DNA from: an uncultured Acidobacteriota bacterium | GTDB taxonomy: Bacteria; Acidobacteriota; Thermoanaerobaculia; Gp7-AA8 | NCBI GenBank assembly: GCA_963741955.1 | Contig: CAVUKB010000001.1 | Location: 384,001 to 448,000, forward strand | DNA length: 64,000 bases | Reading direction: 5' to 3' | Position numbers and translations under genes: made by a program | Notes under the pieces: generated by a model | What the model was told of the DNA's origin: nothing | The model's input: the letters and a program-made list of their open reading frames with translations, nothing else | The model's database searches: none | Shown: positions 2,708-48,045 of the stretch, one piece after another | Layout: each line of letters starts with the position of its first letter | Numbering within the stretch: the first letter of the stretch is position 1

Positions 2708-2990
2708 ACTCCCAGTGCCATAGGCACGATTGACAGTAGGCGCTCTGCGCCGGAAGCCGGGGACTCCGCGACGGAGACGAATCTCGCTGCCCCTCACGAA
2801 GCCGGGGCCGACGTCGTCGTGGCCGAAGTCTCAAGGACCCCCGCCCCCTCTTCATGCCATGCCGTGCACGGCTCGACGCTCGTCCGAATCATCCGCGCTC
2901 CAAGACTTTGGTACTCGACCCCACGAAGCGCCAATCACGTCCACTCGCGCGACGTTCCCTCTCCCCGTCCGGGGTCATGTCTTGAGCCGG
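2708..2990. repeat. Deleted/diverged copy of the ~341-bp repeat unit
   Basis: CCCAGTGCCATAGGCACGATTGACAGTAG...GGCCGACGTCGTCGTGGCCGAAGTCTCAAGGACCCC matches units at 3.78-5.47 kb with internal deletions. Confidence 0.85.
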
Positions 2991-3030
2991 CGTCCGCGAA
3001 AAGCAGATTCGGCACCGGGTTTCTCGTGCT

Positions 3031-3699: not shown

Positions 3700-5475
3700 C
3701 GGCGCTCGTCCGAACCATCCGTGCTCCCAAACTTTCGGATCCGTCCCCATAAGCGCCACCCATTCCCACTCGGGCGCCTCCCAGTGCCGTAGGCACGATT
3801 GACAGTAGCCCCGGGTGAAGGCGCGGTGCGCCGGAACCCGGGGACTCCGCGACGGAGACGATTCTCGTTGCCCCTCTCGAAGACCCAGGCGGGCGCGACG
3901 CGTGCCTGCGACGACGGAGCCACGGCCCGGAAGCATGTTCTGCACGCGGCGTGACCGCCGGGCCAGCGCCGGGGCCGACGTCGTCGTGGCCGAAGTCTCA
4001 AGGACCCCCGTCCGCTCTTTATGCCATGCCGTGCACGTCTCGACGCTCGTCCGAACCATCCGTGCTCCCAAACTTTCGGATCCATCCCCACGAAGCGCGA
4101 CCCATTCCCACTCGGGCGCCTCCCAGTGCCGTAGGCACGATTGACAGTAGCCCCGGGTGAAGGCGCGGTGCGCCGGAACCCGGGGACTCCGCGACGGAGA
4201 CGATTCTCGTTGCCCCTCTCGAAGACCCAGGCGGGCGCGACGCGTGCCTGCGATGACGGAGCCACGGCCCGGAAGCATGTTCTGCACGCGGCGTGACCGC
4301 CGGGCCAGCGCCGGGGCCGACGTCGTCGTGGCCGAAGTCTCAAGGACCCCCGTCCGCTCTTTATGCCATGCCGTGCACGTCTCGGCGCTCGTCCGAACCA
4401 TCCGTGCTCCCAAACTTTCGGATCCGTCCCCATAAGCGCCACCCATTCCCACTCGGGCGCCTCCCAGTGCCGTAGGCACGATTGACAGTAGCCCCGGGTG
4501 AAGGCGCGGTGCGCCGGAACCCGGGGACTCCGCGACGGAGACGATTCTCGTTGCCCCTCTCGAAGACCCAGGCGGGCGCGACGCGTGCCTGCGATGACGG
4601 AGCCACGGCCCTGAAGAATGTTCTGCACGCGGCGTGACCGCCGGGCCAGCGCCGGGACCGACGTCGTCGTGGGCGAAGTCTCAAGGACCCCCGTCCGCTC
4701 TTTATGCCATGCCGTGCACGTCTCGGCGCTCGTCCGAGCCATCCGTGCTCCCAAACTTTCGGATCCGTCCCCATAAGCGCGACCCATTCCCACTCGCGCG
4801 ACTCCCAGTGCCGTAGGCACGATTGACAGTAGCCCCGGGTGAAGGCGCGGTGCGCCGGAACCCGGGGACTCCGCGACGGAGACGATTCTCGTTGCCCCTC
4901 TCGAAAATCCAGGCGGGCGCGACGCGTGCCTGCGACGACGGAGCCACGGCCCGGAAGCATGTTCTGCACGCGGCGTGACCGCCGAGGCCAACGCCGGGGC
5001 CGACGTCGTCGTGGTCGAAGTCTCAAGGACCCCCGTCCGCTCTTTATGCGATGCCGTGCACGTCTCGACGCTCGTCCGAACCGTCCGCGCTGGAAGACTT
5101 CGGTACTCGACCCCACGAAGCGCCAATCACGCCCACTCGCGCGACGGTCTCCTATTCCCGTCCGGGGTCACGTCTTCAGTCGAAGCGTGCATTCGGGGAG
5201 AGGGAAGGGTGAGGGGCAATACCGAAAGTCAGATCCGACACCGAGGCCACTCGCCCCGTCCGCATAAGCGCCACCCACGCCACACGGGCGACTCCCAGTG
5301 CCGTAGGCACGATTGACAGTAGCCCCGGGTGAAGGCGCGGTGCGCCGGAACCCGGGGACTCCGCGACGGAGACGATTCTCGTTGCCCCTCTCGAAAATCC
5401 AGGCGGGCGCGACGCGTGCCTGCGACGACAGAGACACGGCCCTGAAGAATGTTCTGCACGCGGCGTGACCGCCGG
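3700..5475. repeat. Tandem array of ~341-bp near-identical units, each carrying a REP-like double hairpin
   Basis: Anchor TCCCAGTGCCGTAGGCAC at 3779, 4121, 4462, 4803 and 5293 (spacings 342, 341, 341, 490). Confidence 0.95.
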
Positions 5476-5646
5476 AATCCCCGCCGGGACCGTGAAGCAA
5501 GAGGCGACGAAGAAGTTCCTTGTCGCGTTTCCGAGGCGCCGCATTCGTTTTCCTTCCATGGTCATCCGCGCCTCTCGTCATATCGCCCGAACCCTCCATC
5601 CGGGCTCGTCTCTCGAGTGACTGAATCGAGTCGTTGACCGACCGCG

Positions 5647-6000
5647 CTATGGGAGATTAGGCCGCATCGTCGTCCAAACGACGAGCAGTGACGCCAGCCA
5701 GAAGAGCGTCGCGAGAATTGCCACGGTGCGCAGGAACCGCAAACGGCCTCTCGCCCGCGTGTCATCCACATCCGCGAGAATCCGCAGGCCCTTCTGCGCA
5801 CGCCACCAGGCGACCGGCGCGAGGATGAACCCGAACTTGACGCAGAGAATGAGCCAGCCGGTCGACTGATTCGCCAGGCGTAGCGCTTCCCGCGGAGACG
5901 GCGCCGCTCCCGATCCGTCCGCCACGCGGGGTCCATTGCACGACGGGCAAACGATGCGCCCTCCTGGAATCTCGTTCTCACAATTCGCGCAGATCATCAT
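5647..6000 (-). CDS. Zinc-ribbon plus 2-TM hypothetical protein (possible last cassette gene)
   Basis: CxxC...CxxC at the N-terminus, two hydrophobic segments. Confidence 0.7.
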   Translation of the reverse strand: MMICANCENEIPGGRIVCPSCNGPRVADGSGAAPSPREALRLANQSTGWLILCVKFGFILAPVAWWRAQKGLRILADVDDTRARGRLRFLRTVAILATLFWLASLLVVWTTMRPNLP

Positions 6001-6074
6001 TCCCTCGGCGGACCTTCATGCGGCCCCGCGCGACGAAGATGAAATACCACCGTGATGCACCCGTGCTCGTAGAT

Positions 6075-6400
6075 GTCGTCTCTCTGCGAGTGAGCCGGTC
6101 GTTGCCGATCTACGCCGAGATGCCGGAAGGTGTCGCCTTCGATGCGACAGATCCAGTGGTTGCGACTCTCAGCTCGGGCGAACAGCCCAAAGTGCTTCGT
6201 GTTCGATACCTGAAGGACGCAATGGTCGTAGAAGTGAAGACGGCGAACGGGCGAAGCGGCTGGGTCATGTACGATGGCGACGCCTTCTCCCTCAGCATGT
6301 GCAGACGACGATCGCGTGCCACGTCGAGCCGCCACATCGCGACGAGAACCAGGGCGACGGCCGTAACCACTGCGGTGAGTGTGATAACGAAGTACTTCAT
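6075..6400 (-). pseudogene. Cassette gene whose N-terminal TM segment is on the - strand and whose probable SH3-like body is on the + strand (apparent inversion)
   Basis: - strand from 6400: MKYFVITLTAVVTAVALVLVAMWRLDVARDRR; + strand ~6075-6297: VVSLRVSRSLPIYAEMP...VVATLSSGEQPKVLRVRYLKDAMVVEVKTANGRSGWVMY. Confidence 0.4.
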
Positions 6401-6420
6401 CGATTCGATACCGACGCGCG

Positions 6421-6521
6421 AGATAACACCGCGCGGTTCAGGGGCGCCGTCGACGCGCAGAGCGAAAGCATACCGCGAACGCATCGAAGGCGGCGGCCGC
6501 TGGGTAGGGGCTGAGTTATGC
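6421..6521 (-). other. attC site downstream of hicA
   Basis: - strand GCATAAC (overlaps the hicA stop) ... CAGCGGCCGCCG/CGGCGCCCCTG arms ... GTTATCT. Confidence 0.7.
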
Positions 6522-6707
6522 TCCCGGCCTTGGGATCTCGAGGTCCCGGCAGATCTTCTTCACGAGGTCGTCGAAGATCTCCCGATGACGCGGAACCGAT
6601 GTGACCTTCTATGCCTTTCGGTTTATGTAGATCGTGTGATTTCCACCTTCGCGAAAGAACTCGCAGCCGTGAGATTCGAGGTGTTGGATCAGATCGCGCC
6701 GTTTCAA
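6516..6707 (-). pseudogene. hicA: HicA mRNA interferase toxin with an internal stop codon
   Basis: MKRRDLIQHLESHGCEFFREGGNHTIYINRKA*KVTSVPRHREIFDDLVKKICRDLEIP; in-frame TAG at 6609-6611. Confidence 0.85.
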
Positions 6708-6925
6708 GCGGAGACCTTGATCGGCTCGCGAATGACTTCGGCGTCGTGGATCTCTTCCTCGGCGAGTTCGCGGTTGGCGGCAAGTACCATGCTGATCGCT
6801 TCCGCCAGATTTGCTCGAGCCTCCTCCAACGTCGCACCCTGCGTGTTCGCGCCAGGAAGTTCCTCAGCGAAGGCGATGTATCCGCCCTCTACCGCTCGAA
6901 ACACCGCTGTGAAGTTCACGTCCAT
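6704..6925 (-). CDS. hicB: HicB family antitoxin (short form)
   Basis: GGYIAFAEELPGANTQGATLEEARANLAEAI; stop overlaps the hicA start. Confidence 0.9.
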   Translation of the reverse strand: MDVNFTAVFRAVEGGYIAFAEELPGANTQGATLEEARANLAEAISMVLAANRELAEEEIHDAEVIREPIKVSA

Positions 6926-6944
6926 CACGTTCCTCGTCTCCATT

Positions 6945-7039
6945 TTGGCGCTCAGCCGCGCCAATCGCCCGCGAAAAGGTACCAACCTCGGGACGAGCGC
7001 GTTGCGGTTGAGGTCGGCTGCGGCGGTGAGCTATGCGGC
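6945..7039 (-). other. Degenerate attC-like site
   Basis: - strand GCCGCATAGC (decayed R'' box) ... CAGCCG/CGGCTG arms; R' box not recognisable. Confidence 0.35.
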
Positions 7040-7354
7040 TCGCGCCCTCAAGCCATGCGGAAACCGACCGGTGCGAGAAGCGCATGCCGATGTGCGCGGC
7101 AGGAAAGCGACCGGCCGACCGAATAATGAGAATCACGCTGGATGCCCTCATCGAGATCGGCCGTGCTGGCTACCCATTCATGTCGCTCTTGGTAACCGAA
7201 CCTCAGGATGACCAACAGTCGGCACCGTTCGAACGCGTTGGTTGAAACTTCGTCGACCTTGTTGCCAGCCGAAAGCTCGCGCGAAAGAACCGGCGCGAGA
7301 TGGTCGCAGACCGGCGGAAATTCGTTGTTCATCAACATTACGATCTCGTCCGCC

Positions 7355-7418
7355 GCCTGACGTTCCGGGTCAGCGGGGGGCCGCGCAGCGGACCGTCCAC
7401 TGTAAACGGTTGTCAGGC
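7355..7418 (-). other. Short attC site with GAC/GTC in place of AAC/GTT
   Basis: - strand GCCTGAC AACCGTTTACAGTGGACGGTCCGCTGCGCGGCCCCCCGCTGACCCGGAAC GTCAGGC. Confidence 0.7.
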
Positions 7419-7472
7419 GGCCGCTGACGACCAATTCGTGACGCCAGCCAGCCTCAAGAGAGACGTGCGCGG

Positions 7473-8200
7473 TCAAGAGCCGGCGATGGCGTTCTGACGG
7501 TCGTGCCACTTCGACAGGTTTACGCCTTTCACGAGCAGCCACAGCGCCGTGGAGAGTTCGGCGATGAATGGCGGCATCAGAATCACAGGAAACAACCGGG
7601 GCGCCAGCGCGGGGAAAAGGATCAGCACGGACCTGTTGATGAGGTAGCACACTCCCGCGAGCTGCATGCCGACCCCGAGCACCTTCGGCAGATACCCGGA
7701 GCGAAAGATCAAGTAGCCGAGAGCGATGCACGTCATGCCGAAGAAGATGAGGCCAAGCCCGAAGCCGTAATCGTGCGTTCTGAGCGACACGTACGCGAGC
7801 GCCTGAAGCTGTTGCGGCGTAAAGGCTCTCAGATACTCGGCATCGCCGAGGAGAAACGTGGGGATCAGTAGATTCAGCCTGTTCGCCACGAGCACGGAGG
7901 TCTGGACGAGGTTCGACAGGAGCGCGAAGAGCGCGATGTTGCGGTTCACCGGGCTGAGGAGCACGCAAAACACCAGCATGACGCCGATGTCGCACATGTG
8001 CATGAGGAGGTCGCCGGCGATACCGACGCGCCAGAGAGAAACGGATTGGGTGATGTGGTTCGCGGTGGCGACTGCGTTGCCCGAGACGATGAGCGGCCCT
8101 CTGGCGGAGACCTCCAAAAAATGCCGGCGGGGATGATGATCAGGTACAGCACGCCACCACTTCTCGCGTAGACCTGAGGGGTCGCGAACGAGGCGTTCAT
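7473..8200 (-). pseudogene. DUF4386 family multi-pass membrane protein, frameshifted near 8116-8121
   Basis: MNASFATPQVYARSGGVLYLIII-PAGIF in one frame continues as ...LIVSGNAVATANHI...GLIFFG...RSGYLPKVLG...LWLLVKGV in another; T6 run at the junction. Confidence 0.8.
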
Positions 8201-8247
8201 CGTGTTTCCCCTTGCATGGCCATCCGCCATCGGGGTTTGTGTCGCGT

Positions 8248-8748
8248 CATTCTCGCTCCCATCCACGAGCTAGGAGTCTGCGCGATAGAAACGTCCGTAG
8301 CGAGAAAGCGGAGCGCCGAGGCCAAATTCGTTCGGATTTGAGGTGCGTAGCGGTGGCTACTCGCCGAAAATTCGGACGGATTTGGACCGCTGATCCGCTT
8401 TCGCAGTAGGACGGTTTCTACCGCGCAGACTCCTAGGACCTTCTTGCGCTTCGCGAGTTCGCGCCCGCCGCCTTCAGACCACCTTTCGAGGCCACGGCCG
8501 CTTTCGACGATGGAACGAACGCGATCTCTCAGTTCCGTTGAGATCGGACCGGTATCCCAAGCCGCCTTGGCAAGAGCGAGCCAGAAGACGGGGCCCTCGT
8601 CTACGTCGAGAACCTCTTCAGCGAACTGTTTCGCTAGCGACGTGATGATCGTTTCACGCGACTCCAAGGCGTCGAAACGTCGCATGAACGCGTCGTATAC
8701 ATCAGCCGCGAAATCGTCCGCGAGAACTCCGATGCCCCAAGTACCCAT
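8248..8748 (-). pseudogene. DUF4259-like protein interrupted by the MITE
   Basis: MGTWGIGVLADDFAADV...PVFWLALA...KRKKVL; removing the MITE gives ...KKVLARGWERE*. Confidence 0.7.
8274..8432. mobile_element. 159-bp MITE with terminal inverted repeats and CTAG target duplication
   Basis: CTAG|GAGTCTGCGCGATAGAAACGTCC...GGACGGTTTCTACCGCGCAGACTC|CTAG. Confidence 0.85.
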
Positions 8749-8759
8749 GGCCCCCAACC

Positions 8760-8888
8760 GCCTAACGTCCCTTCACATCAGCCGCTCCGGGCCCAACGAG
8801 TGCGTTGGCGGAACGGCAGATGTGTAGACTGTAGGATTGTAACGCATGGAACGGCGGGGCCGGAGGCGGCTGCATGTGATAGTTAGCC
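8760..8888 (-). other. attC site downstream of mazF
   Basis: - strand GGCTAAC (contains the mazF stop) TATCACATGCAGCCGCCTCCGG...CCGGAGCGGCTGATGTG...GTTAGGC, with extrahelical bases. Confidence 0.9.
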
Positions 8889-9239
8889 GGCCGGGACCAC
8901 GAGCAATGAAGCCCTTCTCAAGATGTCGAGGATGGTGCCGGTCGGGAGCGATGCGATGAACTCTGCTCGACGATCGTGCCAGTCCAGGCTCTTGATTTGA
9001 TCGCTGAGGACGACGCCGTGGACGGGTAGCCCCTCCGGGAGCGCGACCTCAAACGGATAGCCTTTGACCTTGGAGGTGACCGGGCAGCAAACCGCTAGAT
9101 TTGTCTTCGCGTTGTACGAGCGCGGCGAGAGCACCACGGCAGGCCGGCGGCCCGCCTGCTCTCGACCTGCCTGCGGATCGAAACTCAACCAGACGAGATC
9201 ACCGCGCTCGGGGACGTACTTACCACGCTTCGTTGCCAC
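8883..9239 (-). CDS. mazF: MazF/PemK endoribonuclease toxin
   Basis: YVPERGDLVWLSFDPQAGREQAGRRPAVVLSP...CPVTSKVKGYPFEV...DQIKSLDW. Confidence 0.95.
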   Translation of the reverse strand: MATKRGKYVPERGDLVWLSFDPQAGREQAGRRPAVVLSPRSYNAKTNLAVCCPVTSKVKGYPFEVALPEGLPVHGVVLSDQIKSLDWHDRRAEFIASLPTGTILDILRRASLLVVPAG

Positions 9240-9462
9240 GGCTCGCCCCGGTATCAACCTCTTCGTGTCGATTGGTCTTCGTGATGCGAGCCACCAAATC
9301 CTCGAGTTCGAGATCGGGCTCCTTCACGGGGGCGATGATCAGCTTCCCGTTCCGCAGCGAGACATCCACGGCAGAGTTCTCCGACAGGTTCGTCTCTTTT
9401 GCGAACGGCTGGGGAATTCGGACGGCGAGGCTGTTGCCCCATTTCTGCAAACGCGTCTTCAT
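9220..9462 (-). CDS. mazE: MazE/AbrB family antitoxin
   Basis: KWGNSLAVRIP...LEDLVARIT..NRHEEVDTG...GNEAW. Confidence 0.95.
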   Translation of the reverse strand: MKTRLQKWGNSLAVRIPQPFAKETNLSENSAVDVSLRNGKLIIAPVKEPDLELEDLVARITKTNRHEEVDTGASRGNEAW

Positions 9463-9466
9463 GCAC

Positions 9467-9485
9467 GTAGCTACATTGAAGATAC
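9467..9485. promoter_or_regulatory. Imperfect palindrome, probable mazEF autoregulatory operator
   Basis: GTAGCTACATTGAAGATAC immediately upstream of the mazE start. Confidence 0.45.
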
Positions 9486-9511
9486 GTTACATATTCCCGG
9501 ACGCTTCAGCC

Positions 9512-9611
9512 GGCGAACGGTTGCGCTTGAGCCGCGCGACCCGCAGGGAGATTCTACCAAGTTACGCCACGGCCGCCGCGGGGAGCGGCGGCTCGAAGCG
9601 CCAAGTTATGC
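9512..9611 (-). other. attC site downstream of the L,D-transpeptidase gene
   Basis: - strand GCATAAC TTGGCGCTTCGAGCCGC...GCGGCTCAAGCGCAACC GTTCGCC. Confidence 0.9.
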
Positions 9612-9616
9612 GGCAG

Positions 9617-10141
9617 CTAGGGCAGGATTTTGACCGGCGTGCCGTCTGGAACTGCTCGCGCAATCTCTTCGATTTCTGGATCCGTCACGGCGATGCAACC
9701 CTGCGTCCAATCCGCAAGGGTATGCAGCCGGCCAACGAATCCGAGGCCGTTTCTGATTCCGTGAATCATGATGTCTCCTCCAGGACGAACTCCACGGGCT
9801 GCCGCGGCCTTCCCTTGGTTCGGCGTTGGGTAGGAGATCTGCAGTGCGATGTGAAACGCGCTGTCTGTTTTGTGGAAATCGACGACGTATGCGCCTTCTG
9901 GTGTTCGCCCGTCGCCCTCGCGTTCTTTCGGGCCTACCGGATTCGGTCCCAGTGCTACCCGGTATGTGCGGAGTACGTGTCCGCCCTTCATGAGAGAAAG
10001 CGAGCGGTCGGACTTCTTGATCACGATCACGTCTGCCGTTGCACCAGGGGGGAGTGGATCCGCGCGGCGGTTGGCAAGGGTAACCGTGACAGCTACGCCT
10101 ACACACGTGAGGAGCGCCGCTGTGAGAAGTACCCTTTTCAC
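9617..10141 (-). CDS. L,D-transpeptidase (YkuD family)
   Basis: GPKEREGDGRTPEGAY...ISYP...GGDIMIHG...DWTQGCIAV; signal peptide. Confidence 0.92.
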   Translation of the reverse strand: MKRVLLTAALLTCVGVAVTVTLANRRADPLPPGATADVIVIKKSDRSLSLMKGGHVLRTYRVALGPNPVGPKEREGDGRTPEGAYVVDFHKTDSAFHIALQISYPTPNQGKAAAARGVRPGGDIMIHGIRNGLGFVGRLHTLADWTQGCIAVTDPEIEEIARAVPDGTPVKILP

Positions 10142-10160
10142 GAGACCGACTGCCCACGCC

Positions 10161-10263
10161 GCATAACGTACCGCCGTTCAGCCGCCGGGGCACGCCTTGA
10201 GATGGTAGCACGAATGCGAGCGCGACTCGGCGTGCCCCGGTCGGCTGGAACGGTTAGTTAGGT
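10161..10263 (-). other. attC site downstream of brnA
   Basis: - strand ACCTAAC TAACCGTTCCAGCCGACCGGGGCACGCC...GGCGTGCCCCGGCGGCTGAACGG...GTTATGC. Confidence 0.9.
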
Positions 10264-10265
10264 GG

Positions 10266-10490
10266 CTACTTCTTGACAGCGGACAGCGTGGCACGGAGGA
10301 ACTTGTTGACCTTCTCGCTTGAGTCGAATACCTCTGCCACGTCGGGTTCGAGAACGACCAGAACTCCACCGCCGCTCGGTTTCTTAAACTTCTTCGCGAA
10401 ACGGTTGGGTCGAGCATCCGAGAAGTCATACTCGGCGCGTATTTCGTCTGAACTCGGCTTCTTCCGTGAGCTAGTTTTCTTCGTAGGCAT
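10266..10490 (-). CDS. brnA: BrnA-like antitoxin
   Basis: DEIRAEYDFSDARPNRFA...VVLEPDVAEVFDSSEKVNKFLR; directly downstream of brnT. Confidence 0.8.
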   Translation of the reverse strand: MPTKKTSSRKKPSSDEIRAEYDFSDARPNRFAKKFKKPSGGGVLVVLEPDVAEVFDSSEKVNKFLRATLSAVKK

Positions 10491-10740
10491 GGCGTTCTTT
10501 GCGGGTAGCGGGCCTCGAACTGATGATCCGAATGGCCAAACCCCGCTCCACGAATGATACCACCAGGACTCTTCCGGACGCCGACATCCCGAGAATGAGC
10601 TCGCGAGCCTCTTCATCGGAGTGGTCCGGATCAGGCTTGATTCCGGCGTTCGGGTCCGCAAACACTGTGGCAGCCTCGTCGAACGATACCCCGTGCTTTC
10701 GCCGATTGGCCGCGGCCTTGCGGGCATCCCATTCGAAGTA
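10471..10740 (-). pseudogene. brnT: BrnT ribonuclease toxin with no recognisable start codon (5'-truncated)
   Basis: YFEWDARKAAANRRKHGVSFDEAATVFADP...RIISSRPATRKERHAYEE; no ATG/GTG/TTG in frame just upstream of YFEWD. Confidence 0.75.
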
Positions 10741-10814
10741 CGGTTCTTTGCCTTCTGATCCTGAAGGTCGGGGAGGCGCGATAGGCGTGAGGCAGAGTGC
10801 AAGGGCGTCGGATT

Positions 10815-10980
10815 CAAGTTTCGGGGTTGCCCCTCACCCTGACCCTCTCCCCGAAGGGCGGTCCCGACTGAAGACATGACCCCGGACGGGGAGAGAGGAT
10901 GTGTCGCGAGTGGGTATGTGGGCTGCTCGTGGGAACGGCGTGCCGAAGTGTTGGAGCATTGGTGGTTCGGAGCGGTCGTC
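10815..10980. repeat. Inverted, diverged copy of the 5070-5230 segment of the repeat array
   Basis: TTGCCCCTCACCCTGACCCTCTCCCCGAA...CGACTGAAGACATGACCCCGGACGGG is the near reverse complement of 5155-5225. Confidence 0.75.
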
Positions 10981-11116
10981 GGGAGGCGGAACGGGAACGT
11001 GGAAAGAGCGGGCGTGGGTTGTTGAAGTTCGGCCAGAGCGCGACGTGTCGCGGGTGGGAGACACCGATGAGCGAAACCGAGCTGCCTCGCTCGTTGCGTC
11101 CGTGAACGGAAGCGTG

Positions 11117-13372
11117 TCAGTGCCGTACGCCGCGACGCTTCGACTGCGACTCGAGCTCGATGTGCTCCGTGCGTCCGCCGGAGAGTGCGATCGCGAGCGT
11201 GGTCGACCGTCCGCCGACGGTGAAAGTGACGGCACTGCCGCCGTCCTTCACCACCCAGCGTCCCTCGATCGTGACGTGGACCAGAGGCGAGCGGCGTGAC
11301 GGATCGGCGATGGAGAGCTCCGTCGTTCGTGCCGAGCCGGTTCGAAACAGCACCGCAGGTGCGTCGACGGTGAGGCCATCGAACGAGCCCGCCTCCCAGA
11401 AAACGACGCCGGTGGCGCCGGTGCGCTCGTCGCGTGCGGCCGCCGTCGCGCCGTCGTTCGCGAGAACGGTGATGGGCGCATTCTCCGCCCACTGTTGCAT
11501 CTGCGACGCGTCGACGTTCGGGACGATCACGTATTCGGCCGCCCCGTTCACCGGAGCGACGCCGTGCTCGATGGCGATGGTCCGGATGCGGTTGCTCACT
11601 TCTGCGGAGGAATTCGCTCCGGCGAGGAGCGACCAGCTTCCGCTGCGCGTGGCGTCGGTGATCCGTACCGTGGTCGGATGCGGAAAGAAGTAGCCGATCT
11701 TCTCGCCGGCCGCCCACCTCGGAGTCGCATGCTCGCTCTCGGACGCCAGCCCGTCCACGACCAGCGACTGACCGCTGCGCACCGGCCGTTGATCGATCAC
11801 CGTCTCGACCGGGTACTGCGAGGTGTCGCAGATCCCGCTGCCGAGGAAAGCGATCGAATCGTCGAAGAAGATCCACGCCTTGCGCATGGAGAGCGACGTG
11901 CCGGCGGGAGAGAGGATCATCGCTGCGACTCCGTTGCTTCCGTCGTCCGTCCCGCCGACGAAGAGGTCGCTGCCGTAGGCGTATCGGTCGCTCGCGGCAT
12001 CGGGTGCGAGCTCGACGGTGGTCCCGGGGAGGCGCGACCAGTCGAGAGTGGGATAGACGTCGCCCGACGCGTATTCGTCCCCGCTGACCACCAGGTGCAT
12101 CCGGCCGTCGGCCTGCCGCGATCCGAGGAGGTCTTCACCGTTCGTGCGCTCGCCGGAAAGAGTGCGCCACGACAACATCCGTACGGACGCGTACCAGCCG
12201 GGGCGCCTGTGAATGACGTAATCCGAGTCGGCGAAATCGCGATGGCCGGAAGGCCACGCGGGAGTGGTCTGCGCGAGCCCGTCGGCGAGAGCGGCGAGCT
12301 CCGGCGGGAGCGTGCCGTCCCAGGAGCGTAGCATCATCGCCGCGCTTCGCCGGATCTCTTCCTGACGGCTGCCCGGGACGACGGACATCTGCAGCAGCGT
12401 CGCGAGACCGTTCCATCCGTTCATGGAAGGATTGCTGACCTGCCGCCCGAGCGAGGAGGGATCGAAATCGTTGCGGTAGAGAGTCCACTGAAGACTGTCG
12501 GCCACGAAATCCGCGAAGAGAGAAGCGCGCGAGGGCGGCAGGGTGAGCGGAGTGCCGGCCGTGAAGAGGAGAAATCGGGAGACGTCGTATGCGAATGAGC
12601 TTCCGTACGCGCCGGTGTAGAGCTGCGGACCGTGCTGCTGGAACGAGAGATCCGGCTGGATCCCGTCACGCGTCGCGTCGGCTCGGCAGGCCGACCCGAT
12701 GGCATCCGACGCAGCGGAGATGCGCGCGTCGTCGCCGGTCAGCACCCCCAGCATGAGGTGGTTCATCGACGACCAGACGAGGTTCTCACCCTCGAGCACG
12801 GAATAGGAATTCGTCAGCCCGGGGCGTGGGCCGATCCGCGCGCGGAGAACGTCGATCCCTTCCTGCAGAACGGCGGGATCGAGGTCGCTCGCGACGAGGA
12901 CCAGAGCCGGCCCGAGCTCGAGCGATGGGCCGATGGTCCAGAACCACCAGTTGCCGTTGGCCGGAACCGAACCGCCATAGAACGACGGCAGCCCATCCAC
13001 ACACGCCTCGATCCCGGACAGGAGCTGAGGGTCGTGATACCAGATCTGTCCCGGCGTCGCGTAGCCGCGTGCCATGGTCAGGAGCCGCCGGAAGTGATCC
13101 CACGGCGACCAGACGCCGCTCGGGACTTCGGTGTAATCGATGTCGCTCCAGCGCCCGTCGGAACCGAGGAAGCCGGGCGCGGTGATGCGGCGCACCTCGT
13201 TCTCGAGAGCCGATCGCGCGGCGATTGTTCGTTGAGAGATGGGAGAGGCGCCGGCACCGGTGTAATAACCGGTGATCGAATCGCGGATCGGAGTGACGTC
13301 GTTCGCCAGCAGTGGGGTGGAGAGGAGCAGCGAGACGAGAGTGAGAGCGATCGGACGGAGAAACCGGAGCAT
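11117..13372 (-). CDS. Polysaccharide lyase family 8 (hyaluronate/chondroitin/xanthan lyase-like), secreted
   Basis: NWWFWTIG, GENLVW, DGIQPDLSFQQHGPQLYTGAYG, DWSRLPGTT, FVGG motifs; signal peptide. Confidence 0.9.
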   Translation of the reverse strand: MLRFLRPIALTLVSLLLSTPLLANDVTPIRDSITGYYTGAGASPISQRTIAARSALENEVRRITAPGFLGSDGRWSDIDYTEVPSGVWSPWDHFRRLLTMARGYATPGQIWYHDPQLLSGIEACVDGLPSFYGGSVPANGNWWFWTIGPSLELGPALVLVASDLDPAVLQEGIDVLRARIGPRPGLTNSYSVLEGENLVWSSMNHLMLGVLTGDDARISAASDAIGSACRADATRDGIQPDLSFQQHGPQLYTGAYGSSFAYDVSRFLLFTAGTPLTLPPSRASLFADFVADSLQWTLYRNDFDPSSLGRQVSNPSMNGWNGLATLLQMSVVPGSRQEEIRRSAAMMLRSWDGTLPPELAALADGLAQTTPAWPSGHRDFADSDYVIHRRPGWYASVRMLSWRTLSGERTNGEDLLGSRQADGRMHLVVSGDEYASGDVYPTLDWSRLPGTTVELAPDAASDRYAYGSDLFVGGTDDGSNGVAAMILSPAGTSLSMRKAWIFFDDSIAFLGSGICDTSQYPVETVIDQRPVRSGQSLVVDGLASESEHATPRWAAGEKIGYFFPHPTTVRITDATRSGSWSLLAGANSSAEVSNRIRTIAIEHGVAPVNGAAEYVIVPNVDASQMQQWAENAPITVLANDGATAAARDERTGATGVVFWEAGSFDGLTVDAPAVLFRTGSARTTELSIADPSRRSPLVHVTIEGRWVVKDGGSAVTFTVGGRSTTLAIALSGGRTEHIELESQSKRRGVRH

Positions 13373-47766: not shown

Positions 47767-48045
47767 CAGCCCCGTAGGGGCGATTGACAATAGCCCAGGA
47801 CGCAGTCCTGGGATTCTTGACGCGGAAGACCACCCTTCGGAGACAGCCCCGTAGGGGCGATTGACAATAGCCCAGGACGCAGTCCTGGGGCCGAGGTTCC
47901 TGCGCGGAAGACCACGCTCGGGCAGCCCCGTAGGGGCGATTGACAATAGCCCAGGACGCAGTCCTGGGATTCTTGACGCGGAAGACCGCCCTTCGGAGGC
48001 AGCCCCGTAGGGGCGATTGACAATAGCCCGGGACGCAGTCCCGGG
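47767..48045. repeat. Four direct copies of a 46-bp REP-like double hairpin (BIME-like cluster)
   Basis: CAGCCCCGTAGGGGCGATTGACAATAGCCCAGGACGCAGTCCTGGG at 47767, 47844, 47923 and 48000; linkers 31/33/31 nt and related to each other. Confidence 0.92.

Follow-up and report, generated by a model that had tools for sequence, protein, structure and literature searches.

TANNNT boxes on the cassette strand of long attC loops as candidate weak extended −10 promoters in an Acidobacteriota lineage

How might the cassettes of an integron array be expressed where no cassette promoter (Pc) is at hand? In the standard integron model, cassettes are promoterless, attC recombination sites are conserved in structure only, and expression falls with distance from Pc. 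The question is raised by a 64,000-nucleotide (nt) stretch of contig 1 from an uncultured, soil-type Acidobacteriota bacterium (positions 384001–448000; hereafter the window, whose own coordinates are used unless a contig is named), in which a row of small genes on the − strand, at 6421–10760, is split by imperfect palindromes ending ...TAAC / GTTA.... An earlier note on this DNA, made from the sequence alone, had proposed that every long attC site there carries a −10 hexamer in its loop. Here we report that the pattern TANNNT occurs far beyond chance in the loops of long attC sites of this genome and its relatives, on the cassette-coding (top) strand, and we regard it as somewhat probable that these boxes are weak extended −10 promoters driving the next cassette.

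The window contains an integrase-less array with a box in each intact long attC site

The region at 6421–10760 is an integrase-less integron cassette cluster (CALIN) on the − strand, because the sole integron integrase of the genome is encoded on another contig (contig 5). A CALIN is reportedly defined, in the IntegronFinder paper, by at least two attC sites with no intI nearby. Here five or six co-oriented attC sites over 4.3 kb, all on the − strand, separate one- or two-gene cassettes; the profile search of the genome placed the only intI above cut-off on contig 5, and the other tyrosine recombinase matches of contig 1, at 16–17 kb and 292–293 kb, fall outside the window.

Inverse core sites R″ (RYYYAAC) and R′ (GTTRRRY) are found at the ends of sites A, B, C, and E. 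The arms pair on either side of a variable central loop, and the coding-strand 5′ arm shows two bulges of one base each, the complements of the bottom-strand extrahelical bases (predicted fold pattern of the arm, ((((((.((((((.((((). Of the 25 listed contig 5 sites, 23 share one sign of the bulge score and the other two score 0; among the window sites, E and C have that sign also and A scores 0. Wherever the score is nonzero it agrees with the rule that a C precedes GTT (the CGTT rule). On their sequences, the window palindromes have every feature of integron attC sites. An Rfam search found no family matching within the array. The sites and their boxes are the following.

10161–10263, − strand: attC_A, 103 nt, behind the BrnT/BrnA-like cassette; R″ AACTAAC/ACCTAAC, R′ GTTATGC; detected at −44 kcal/mol by the hairpin scan, which is blind to the loop; orientation from the bulge and CGTT rules
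10202–10210, − strand: box TGCTACCAT (TGC-TACCAT) in the attC_A loop, ending 60 nt ahead of the GTG that opens the YkuD gene; the predicted fold leaves the whole hexamer unpaired
9512–9611, − strand: attC_B; R″ GCATAAC, R′ GTTCGCC; missed by the scanner and delimited by eye
9551–9559, − strand: box TGGTAGAAT (TGG-TAGAAT) in the attC_B loop, ending 88 nt before the mazE ATG; exact sequence match
8760–8888, − strand: attC_C, 129 nt; R″ GGCTAAC, R′ GTTAGGC; found by the scan; paralogue of the contig 5 attC at 843969–844098
8836–8841, − strand: box TACAAT in the attC_C loop; exact sequence match
7355–7419, − strand: attC_D, short (65 nt; GCCTGAC...GTCAGGC, GAC/GTC variants), with no box; recognized by sequence
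6950–7040 (about), − strand: attC_F, decayed, with a recognizable left arm and R′ lost; box TGGTACCTT (TGG-TACCTT) at 6976–6984, upstream of the HicB-like open reading frame (ORF); recognized by sequence
6421–6521, − strand: attC_E, 101 nt; R″ GCATAAC, R′ GTTATCT; recognized by sequence; paralogue of the contig 5 attC at 838269–838366
6467–6472, − strand: box TATGCT in the attC_E loop, ending 66 nt before an ATG at 6400; exact sequence match

All five strings that the earlier note had placed in the loops of A, B, C, E, and the decayed F are exact, and the three said to carry an extended TGn are indeed A, B, and F. TANNNT is present on the top strand in all four intact long sites and on the bottom strand in C only. 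The further statement that the loops are otherwise unrelated holds in part: C and E have clear paralogues on contig 5, and A, B, and F share TGsTA...TCTC.

TANNNT is enriched and strand-biased in long attC loops

The attC scanner reads the two arms only (AAC...GTT, at most two R″/R′ mismatches, and a duplex energy threshold on 30-nt arms), and strand was called from arm features only, namely the bulge side and the C before GTT, so the loop plays no part in either detection or orientation. Sites of at least 95 nt were classed as long, and 28 nt was trimmed from both ends of a site to give its central region; this fixed definition misses the box of F, because the right arm of F is lost. Early hairpin scanners were too permissive in this GC-rich genome (615 matches on each strand of the window, and later 5157 genome-wide), and only strong duplexes (≤ −26 to −33 kcal/mol) inside arrays were retained. 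The 27 long attC sites of the genome comprise 25 found by the scanner plus B and E, added by hand from the list of the earlier note; D was also added by hand. Three candidates were judged not to be attC and were excluded before the count: a palindrome of a miniature inverted-repeat transposable element (MITE) at contig 1 position 392286, a 59-nt match inside the first cassette of contig 5 (851806), and a weak 123-nt match at contig 5 position 486526. MAFFT and RNAalifold applied to four to six window sites gave no usable consensus, and no covariance model was built.

TANNNT was found on the cassette strand in 24 of the 27 long sites and on the other strand in 3 of 27, where mononucleotide-shuffled loops gave 6.4 ± 2.1 and none of 5000 shuffles reached 24. 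Scanner-found sites alone gave 22/25. The string TGNTANNNT occurred eight times on the top strand and never on the bottom strand of these sites, with 0.44 expected. A family set of 42 long sites was assembled from this genome and its relatives G070 and G216. In this set TANNNT was present on the top strand of 37 sites vs 6 on the bottom (9.3 ± 2.6 expected) and ranked first among the 64 XYNNNZ patterns (z = 10.7).

The boxes could be without function, inherited from a few ancestral attC sites that spread in these genomes or produced by loop composition. Obvious paralogues are present, namely C with contig 5 843969, E with contig 5 838269, two duplicated pairs on contig 5, and 11 sites of G216, and top-strand loops are T-rich (T 0.23, A 0.12). 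Yet the enrichment outlasts collapse to 25 dissimilar loops sharing <25% of their 6-mers (20 top, 3 bottom, 5.7 ± 2.0 expected, z = 7.1), the hexamer is kept where the surrounding loop cannot be aligned, and the same motif occurs in unrelated lineages with other attC types (loci L121, L148, and L101, below). Composition is rejected both by the composition-preserving shuffles and by a conditional test: of 64 loop TAs on the top strand, 42 have a T at +5 (T frequency 0.22, p about 1e-13), vs 7 of 64 on the bottom, independently of TA content. We therefore hold an absence of function to be very improbable; the TANNNT pattern in attC loops is far beyond chance.

Anatomy of the box and likeness to host −10 elements

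The hexamers are TACAAT (10), TATACT (6), TACCAT (5), and TATAAT (2), plus a tail of others. T1, A2, and T6 are kept while positions 3–5, the flanks, the register, and the distance to R′ vary; these three bases were fixed by how the boxes were anchored, and the flanks are still informative. On the upstream side, positions −4, −3, and −2 are enriched in G, T, and G, respectively; on the downstream side come a T/C-rich stretch and then the G-rich arm. TGn precedes 3 of the 5 window boxes, 9 of the 37 family boxes, and 7 of the 20 dissimilar sites, and TG lies one base off in a further 7 of the 37. Measured from the end of the box, the GTT of R′ is 32–42 nt away in most sites; the distance rises to 50–52 nt in some and to about 70 nt in sites of the 130-nt type. 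All 11 sites of G216 read TACAAT, TATAAT, TACCAT, or TATACT, and among these near-identical sites the register moves 2 nt between the TACAAT and the TACCAT/TATACT forms. Single-strand fold predictions leave most of the box unpaired (4.85 of 6 bases on average; 13 of 20 boxes wholly unpaired). Most of the ORFs that follow share the strand of the box, and in most cassettes they begin 56–137 nt past it.

Several other readings of these bases were discarded. Stop-codon, start-codon, and integration host factor-site readings were dropped by eye, many hexamers having no stop and none having a start, and the L″ box (TTGCAC/TTGCAG) was ruled out as a −35 element in this genome, the spacing being about 36 nt. 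A consensus promoter scan that requires both hexamers returned 0 sites at window positions 5500–11500, which is expected because the boxes have no −35.

For comparison with host promoters, the region from −70 to −5 was examined upstream of 43 of the 53 tRNA genes of the genome, the tRNA promoters themselves being inferred from sequence. TANNNT was present upstream of 26 of the 43 in the sense direction vs 6 in the antisense direction, and 15 of the boxes had a TTGACA-like −35 at 16–18 nt. TGn accompanied 2 of 16 boxes with a −35 and 6 of 16 boxes without one, the latter lying 15–35 nt before the tRNA (e.g., gtgcTACAATcccgcg and ctgcTAACATgcgcg). Since both kinds of tRNA box were seen, the host appears to use both promoter classes, with a −35 and with TGn but no −35, and the attC boxes look like the class without a −35. 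A host −10 matrix built from 15 clear tRNA −10 regions gave median scores of 4.4 for attC top strands, −0.4 for attC bottom strands, and 0.7 for random genomic windows. A likeness of the boxes to −10 elements of the host, which the earlier note had remarked on for −10-only promoters elsewhere in the window, is therefore supported, including the TGn forms without a −35.

The complete integron of the genome

The single integron integrase of the genome (TIGR02249, 466 bits, cut-off 265) is encoded at contig 5 852424–853368, and its best named relatives are from Acidobacteriota metagenome-assembled genomes (MAGs). Beside it, at 827243–851042, lie at least 25 attC sites of the same type as those of the window; the attC at 845158–845262 carries TGTATAAT, and that at 848392–848493 is a long site with no box. 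The integrase is predicted to recombine the attC sites of this genome. The contig 5 intI is co-directional with its cassettes, making this a "reverse" integron, and a Pc-like TTCTCA-17-TACAAT stands at the 3′ end of intI, before a GTTAGGG that is a possible attI crossover (contig 5, 852193–853368; locus L030, 6193–7398). The same reverse layout was seen in G070, G276, G286, G349, and G129, and G036 has the classical divergent layout.

Distribution of the box across lineages

An integron integrase match above the cut-off was found in 124 of the 401 genomes of a phylum sample, a tally that takes in three unpublished genomes, which no other result here relies on. In relatives, a site was counted where it had an absolute orientation score of at least 3 and lay on the majority strand of a locus with at least two such sites; locus L080 was dropped, as it overlaps L025/L026. 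A cross-phylum sample of 80 named records gave 20 loci that passed the filter, with 75 long sites, of which 28 had a top-strand TANNNT and 7 a bottom-strand one (18.5 ± 3.2 expected; 28 was attained in 8 of 2000 shuffles). A handful of arrays in which almost all sites are positive account for the excess: L121 (9/10), L148 (3/3; a delta-proteobacterial MAG), L101 (3/4; a Coriobacteriia MAG), and L083 (4/7; a Chloroflexia MAG). L121, from an Aquabacterium sp. MAG (NZ_JBGAGA010000064.1), has ten attC sites of 126–129 nt in three loop subtypes, and TATCAT, TATCTT, TATCGT, or TATTGT stands at the hairpin apex on the top strand in nine of them and on the bottom strand in none. Other cross-phylum arrays are without the box, e.g., L134 (0/15). 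Together with the Acidobacteriota counts given below, the box is all-or-none by lineage, neither general to Acidobacteriota nor unique to them.

Weighing a promoter role

The box has conserved positions, in part of the sites a TG one base upstream, a strict strand bias towards the next gene, tolerance of position within the loop, and a likeness to the host −10, and for these reasons an extended −10 element fits best. From computed evidence, namely the sites, the motif, its strand bias and enrichment, and the host −10 likeness, we infer that RNA polymerase would initiate at the boxes. A look-up of sequencing runs covering window positions 6300–10800 listed no RNA run.

A number of results weigh against this. 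No −35 accompanies the boxes, the best TTGACA match 16–18 nt upstream having at most three of six bases in all 37 family boxes. Just 7 of the 27 attC loops score above the random 95th percentile on the host −10 matrix, and all of them lie far below the training tRNA promoters (median 12.1); if the boxes are promoters, such moderate scores would make them weak ones. Three long sites and all of the short attC sites of this genome are without a box, and the counts overstate independence because sites within a genome share descent. The complete integron on contig 5 owns a Pc-like promoter. Outside the family, 54 further Acidobacteriota loci around intI of other families were scanned, of which 21 passed the filter and provided 94 long attC sites (loci L015–L080). 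In these TANNNT is depleted, with 15 on the top strand vs 25.4 ± 4.0 expected and 3 on the bottom vs 13.4 ± 3.2, and most of the arrays are without the box (0/17, 0/10, 0/5, and others). The depletion may be due to avoidance of stray promoters or of TA.

The claims of the earlier note fare unevenly in this light. Its proposal that each attC is a portable promoter for the next cassette agrees with the orientation of the box, its enrichment, and its place in the upstream cassette, and is weakened by the lack of a −35 and the moderate host-matrix scores. Expression free of Pc accords with a window array that has no Pc and less well with the Pc-like promoter of the complete integron. The extension of TANNNT to attC loops of Acidobacteriota as a whole fails; as a phylum-wide generalization it was rejected, TANNNT ranking 51 of 64 outside the family.

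A role in recombination at the DNA level, in which the box would assist hairpin folding, resist or recruit single-strand binding proteins, or contact a clade integrase or host factor, with its −10 likeness coincidental, was also considered. The box is predicted to lie in the variable terminal structure, where the hairpin is unpaired; between lineages that differ in integrase and attC type it is all-or-none; and attC loop features are known to affect strand choice (PMC5027507, PMC2727003). The recombining strand is, however, the bottom strand, whereas it is on the top strand that the motif spells a known signal; loop position and distance to R′ vary by about 40 nt, and the register shifts between paralogues. 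Short attC sites of the same arrays, served by the same integrase, do without a box, and the upstream TG enrichment and the host −10 match would be left unexplained. We judge such a role unlikely.

The signal might act instead in the sense RNA, UAnnnU in the attC hairpin loop being a processing or nuclease entry site or affecting translation of the next cassette. A sense-strand signal fits this as well as it fits a promoter, which is a further point against the latter; the box is single-stranded in the predicted hairpin, and translation of downstream cassettes is reportedly influenced by attC hairpins in the mRNA (PMC8876359). On the other side, T1, A2, and T6 with free positions 3–5 and TGn one base upstream are the recognition signature of the sigma-70 −10 element, no start codon or Shine-Dalgarno-like element goes with the box, and the Rfam search matched nothing in the array. 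We know of no RNA element with the T1/A2/T6 and upstream TGn signature. An RNA role seems to us quite unlikely, and a small share of the probability goes to none of the readings given here.

On the preferred reading, that of a weak extended −10 promoter, a housekeeping sigma factor would use the box as a −10-only element, (G)TGn-TAnnnT, on the cassette-coding strand. Transcription would start in the 3′ arm of the attC and run through R′ into the next cassette, with leaders of about 50–120 nt. The integron crossover is at G|TT of R′ (PMC11014356), and the boxes lie 32–70 nt upstream of it, inside the attC of the preceding cassette; the box therefore travels with the upstream cassette, because the crossover is downstream of it. 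Each cassette would bring a promoter for whatever follows, and shuffling would set that promoter before other genes. Expression could still occur in arrays distant from Pc and in those that, like the window CALIN, have none.

Relation to known internal integron promoters

A literature search found no paper describing a promoter within attC of the kind proposed here, although a statement on an attC-loop motif could sit in full texts or supplements beyond the passages covered. A 2022 review places known cassette-borne promoters (PcmlA, PqacE, PqnrVC, and those of ereA and toxin-antitoxin cassettes) in cassette 5′ untranslated regions (PMC8876359). Like the boxes, they are promoters inside an array that free expression from the distance to Pc; unlike them, they are individual cases that sit in the 5′ untranslated region of their own cassette, whereas the box occupies the loop of the attC that closes the upstream cassette at its 3′ end, would serve the neighbour of that cassette, and is found in nearly every long attC of the lineage.

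In Vibrio sp. DAT722, a sigma-70-type promoter bridges one attC junction (Michael and Labbate 2010, PMC2945992). There, too, attC supplies part of a promoter, and its authors pointed out that promoter parts and cassettes could be combined anew when the array is rearranged; it is the −35 that attC gives in that case, the downstream cassette giving an array-unique −10, whereas here attC gives the −10 (with TGn) and there is no −35. Among gene-less promoter cassettes of the Vibrionaceae superintegrons, one start was mapped "even within the attC," and transcription is stated not to end at attC sites (Blanco et al. 2024, PMC11014356). Unlike the case made here, those starts are scattered and are discussed as possibly spurious and AT-driven, and no conserved attC-loop element is reported in the passages covered. 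Scattered transcription starts along superintegrons are reported, in the passages covered, without a common element (PMC11551772, PMC11014356).

The promoter-early stem-loop (PeSL) mobile regulatory cassettes of T4-type phages likewise couple a promoter to a stem-loop where genes shuffle, and form mini-circles (Arbiol et al. 2010, PMC2839356). They differ in being phage elements, with strong full promoters beside terminator hairpins and homologous exchange, whereas here the sites are of the IntI-type attC kind with the box inside the hairpin loop. The reverse ("unusual") integrons, e.g., of Treponema denticola, share with this genome and five relatives an intI co-directional with the cassettes; in the passages covered, that resemblance is one of platform layout only, with nothing on attC-borne promoters (PMC6557892). 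The term "undescribed system" used in the earlier note is therefore too strong, and the attC-loop box is plausibly interpreted as a lineage-specific variant of internal integron promoters.

Cassette genes and neighbouring features

The cassettes of the window encode a BrnT-like protein with a small partner ORF, a YkuD L,D-transpeptidase, MazE/MazF, DUF4259-like and DUF4386 proteins, and a HicB/HicA-like pair; two further cassette ORFs of the array had no match in the Pfam search.

10266–10765, − strand: first cassette, with a BrnT-like toxin (10471–10665 scored; Pfam PF04365, E = 8.4e-14) and a small ORF in the BrnA position (10266–10490), for which the Pfam search gave no match
9617–10141, − strand: L,D-transpeptidase (YkuD domain) cassette gene (Pfam PF03734, E = 1.2e-18)
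8883–9462, − strand: MazE-like antitoxin (9220–9462) and PemK/MazF-like toxin (8883–9257) (Pfam PF04014, PF02452)
7473–8757, − strand: DUF4259-like ORF (8197–8757) and DUF4386 membrane protein ORF (7473–8117) (Pfam)

The brnT-like ORF matches its Pfam profile only from position 23 and has no obvious start codon (10665–10765, − strand), and the hicA-like ORF (6520–6720, − strand) contains a TAG in frame near 6612; the two toxin genes may both have decayed. The DUF4259-like ORF is split by a palindromic MITE-like insert of ∼170 bp (8265–8440), for which a blastn search of the genome gave 139 matches covering at least 80% of the length; the copies are fewer than 139 because both strands of a palindrome were counted.

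Repeats and RNA motifs also occur around the array. An 81-nt hairpin-rich unit at 10825–10905 (also at about 2947–3000) marks its upstream edge, adjoins a PL8 lyase gene, and is one member of a repeat family, both dispersed and in tandem, that has 95 genomic matches. The hairpin scan output also contained a tandem repeat of period ∼341 bp in at least four copies at about 3800–5200, and four tandem copies of the Acido-Lenti-1 RNA motif (RF01687, 44.8–46.8 bits) lie 77–79 nt apart at 47768–48045 (− strand).

A different arrangement was observed in the short attC sites (72–77 nt) of another Acidobacteriota family (loci L054, L055, L056, and L064, from genomes G134, G268, G391, and G359), in which the L″ box TTGCAG is followed after exactly 17 nt by NATNNT in the apical loop. 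This layout is found in 8 of the 15 short sites of that family, with TGn in 5 of the 8, so that a promoter-like layout is complete inside a minimal attC.

Significance

A broader proposal, which we advance only tentatively and consider somewhat doubtful, is that a class of long attC sites, found in the Thermoanaerobaculia-like family and in scattered Aquabacterium, delta-proteobacterial, Chloroflexia, and Coriobacteriia MAGs, evolved a built-in extended −10, with arrays and orphan CALINs expressed cassette by cassette, independently of Pc, and at a strength that could depend on hairpin extrusion or supercoiling. A conserved, strand-specific −10 in attC would explain expression of distal cassettes and of integrase-less clusters in some lineages. 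TGn-TAnnnT in the top-strand loop is a sequence rule that can be screened across all known attC sites. If the proposal is true, a box on the non-template strand in an unpaired loop could tie expression to the state of the DNA that permits recombination, and shuffling would move promoters as well as genes.

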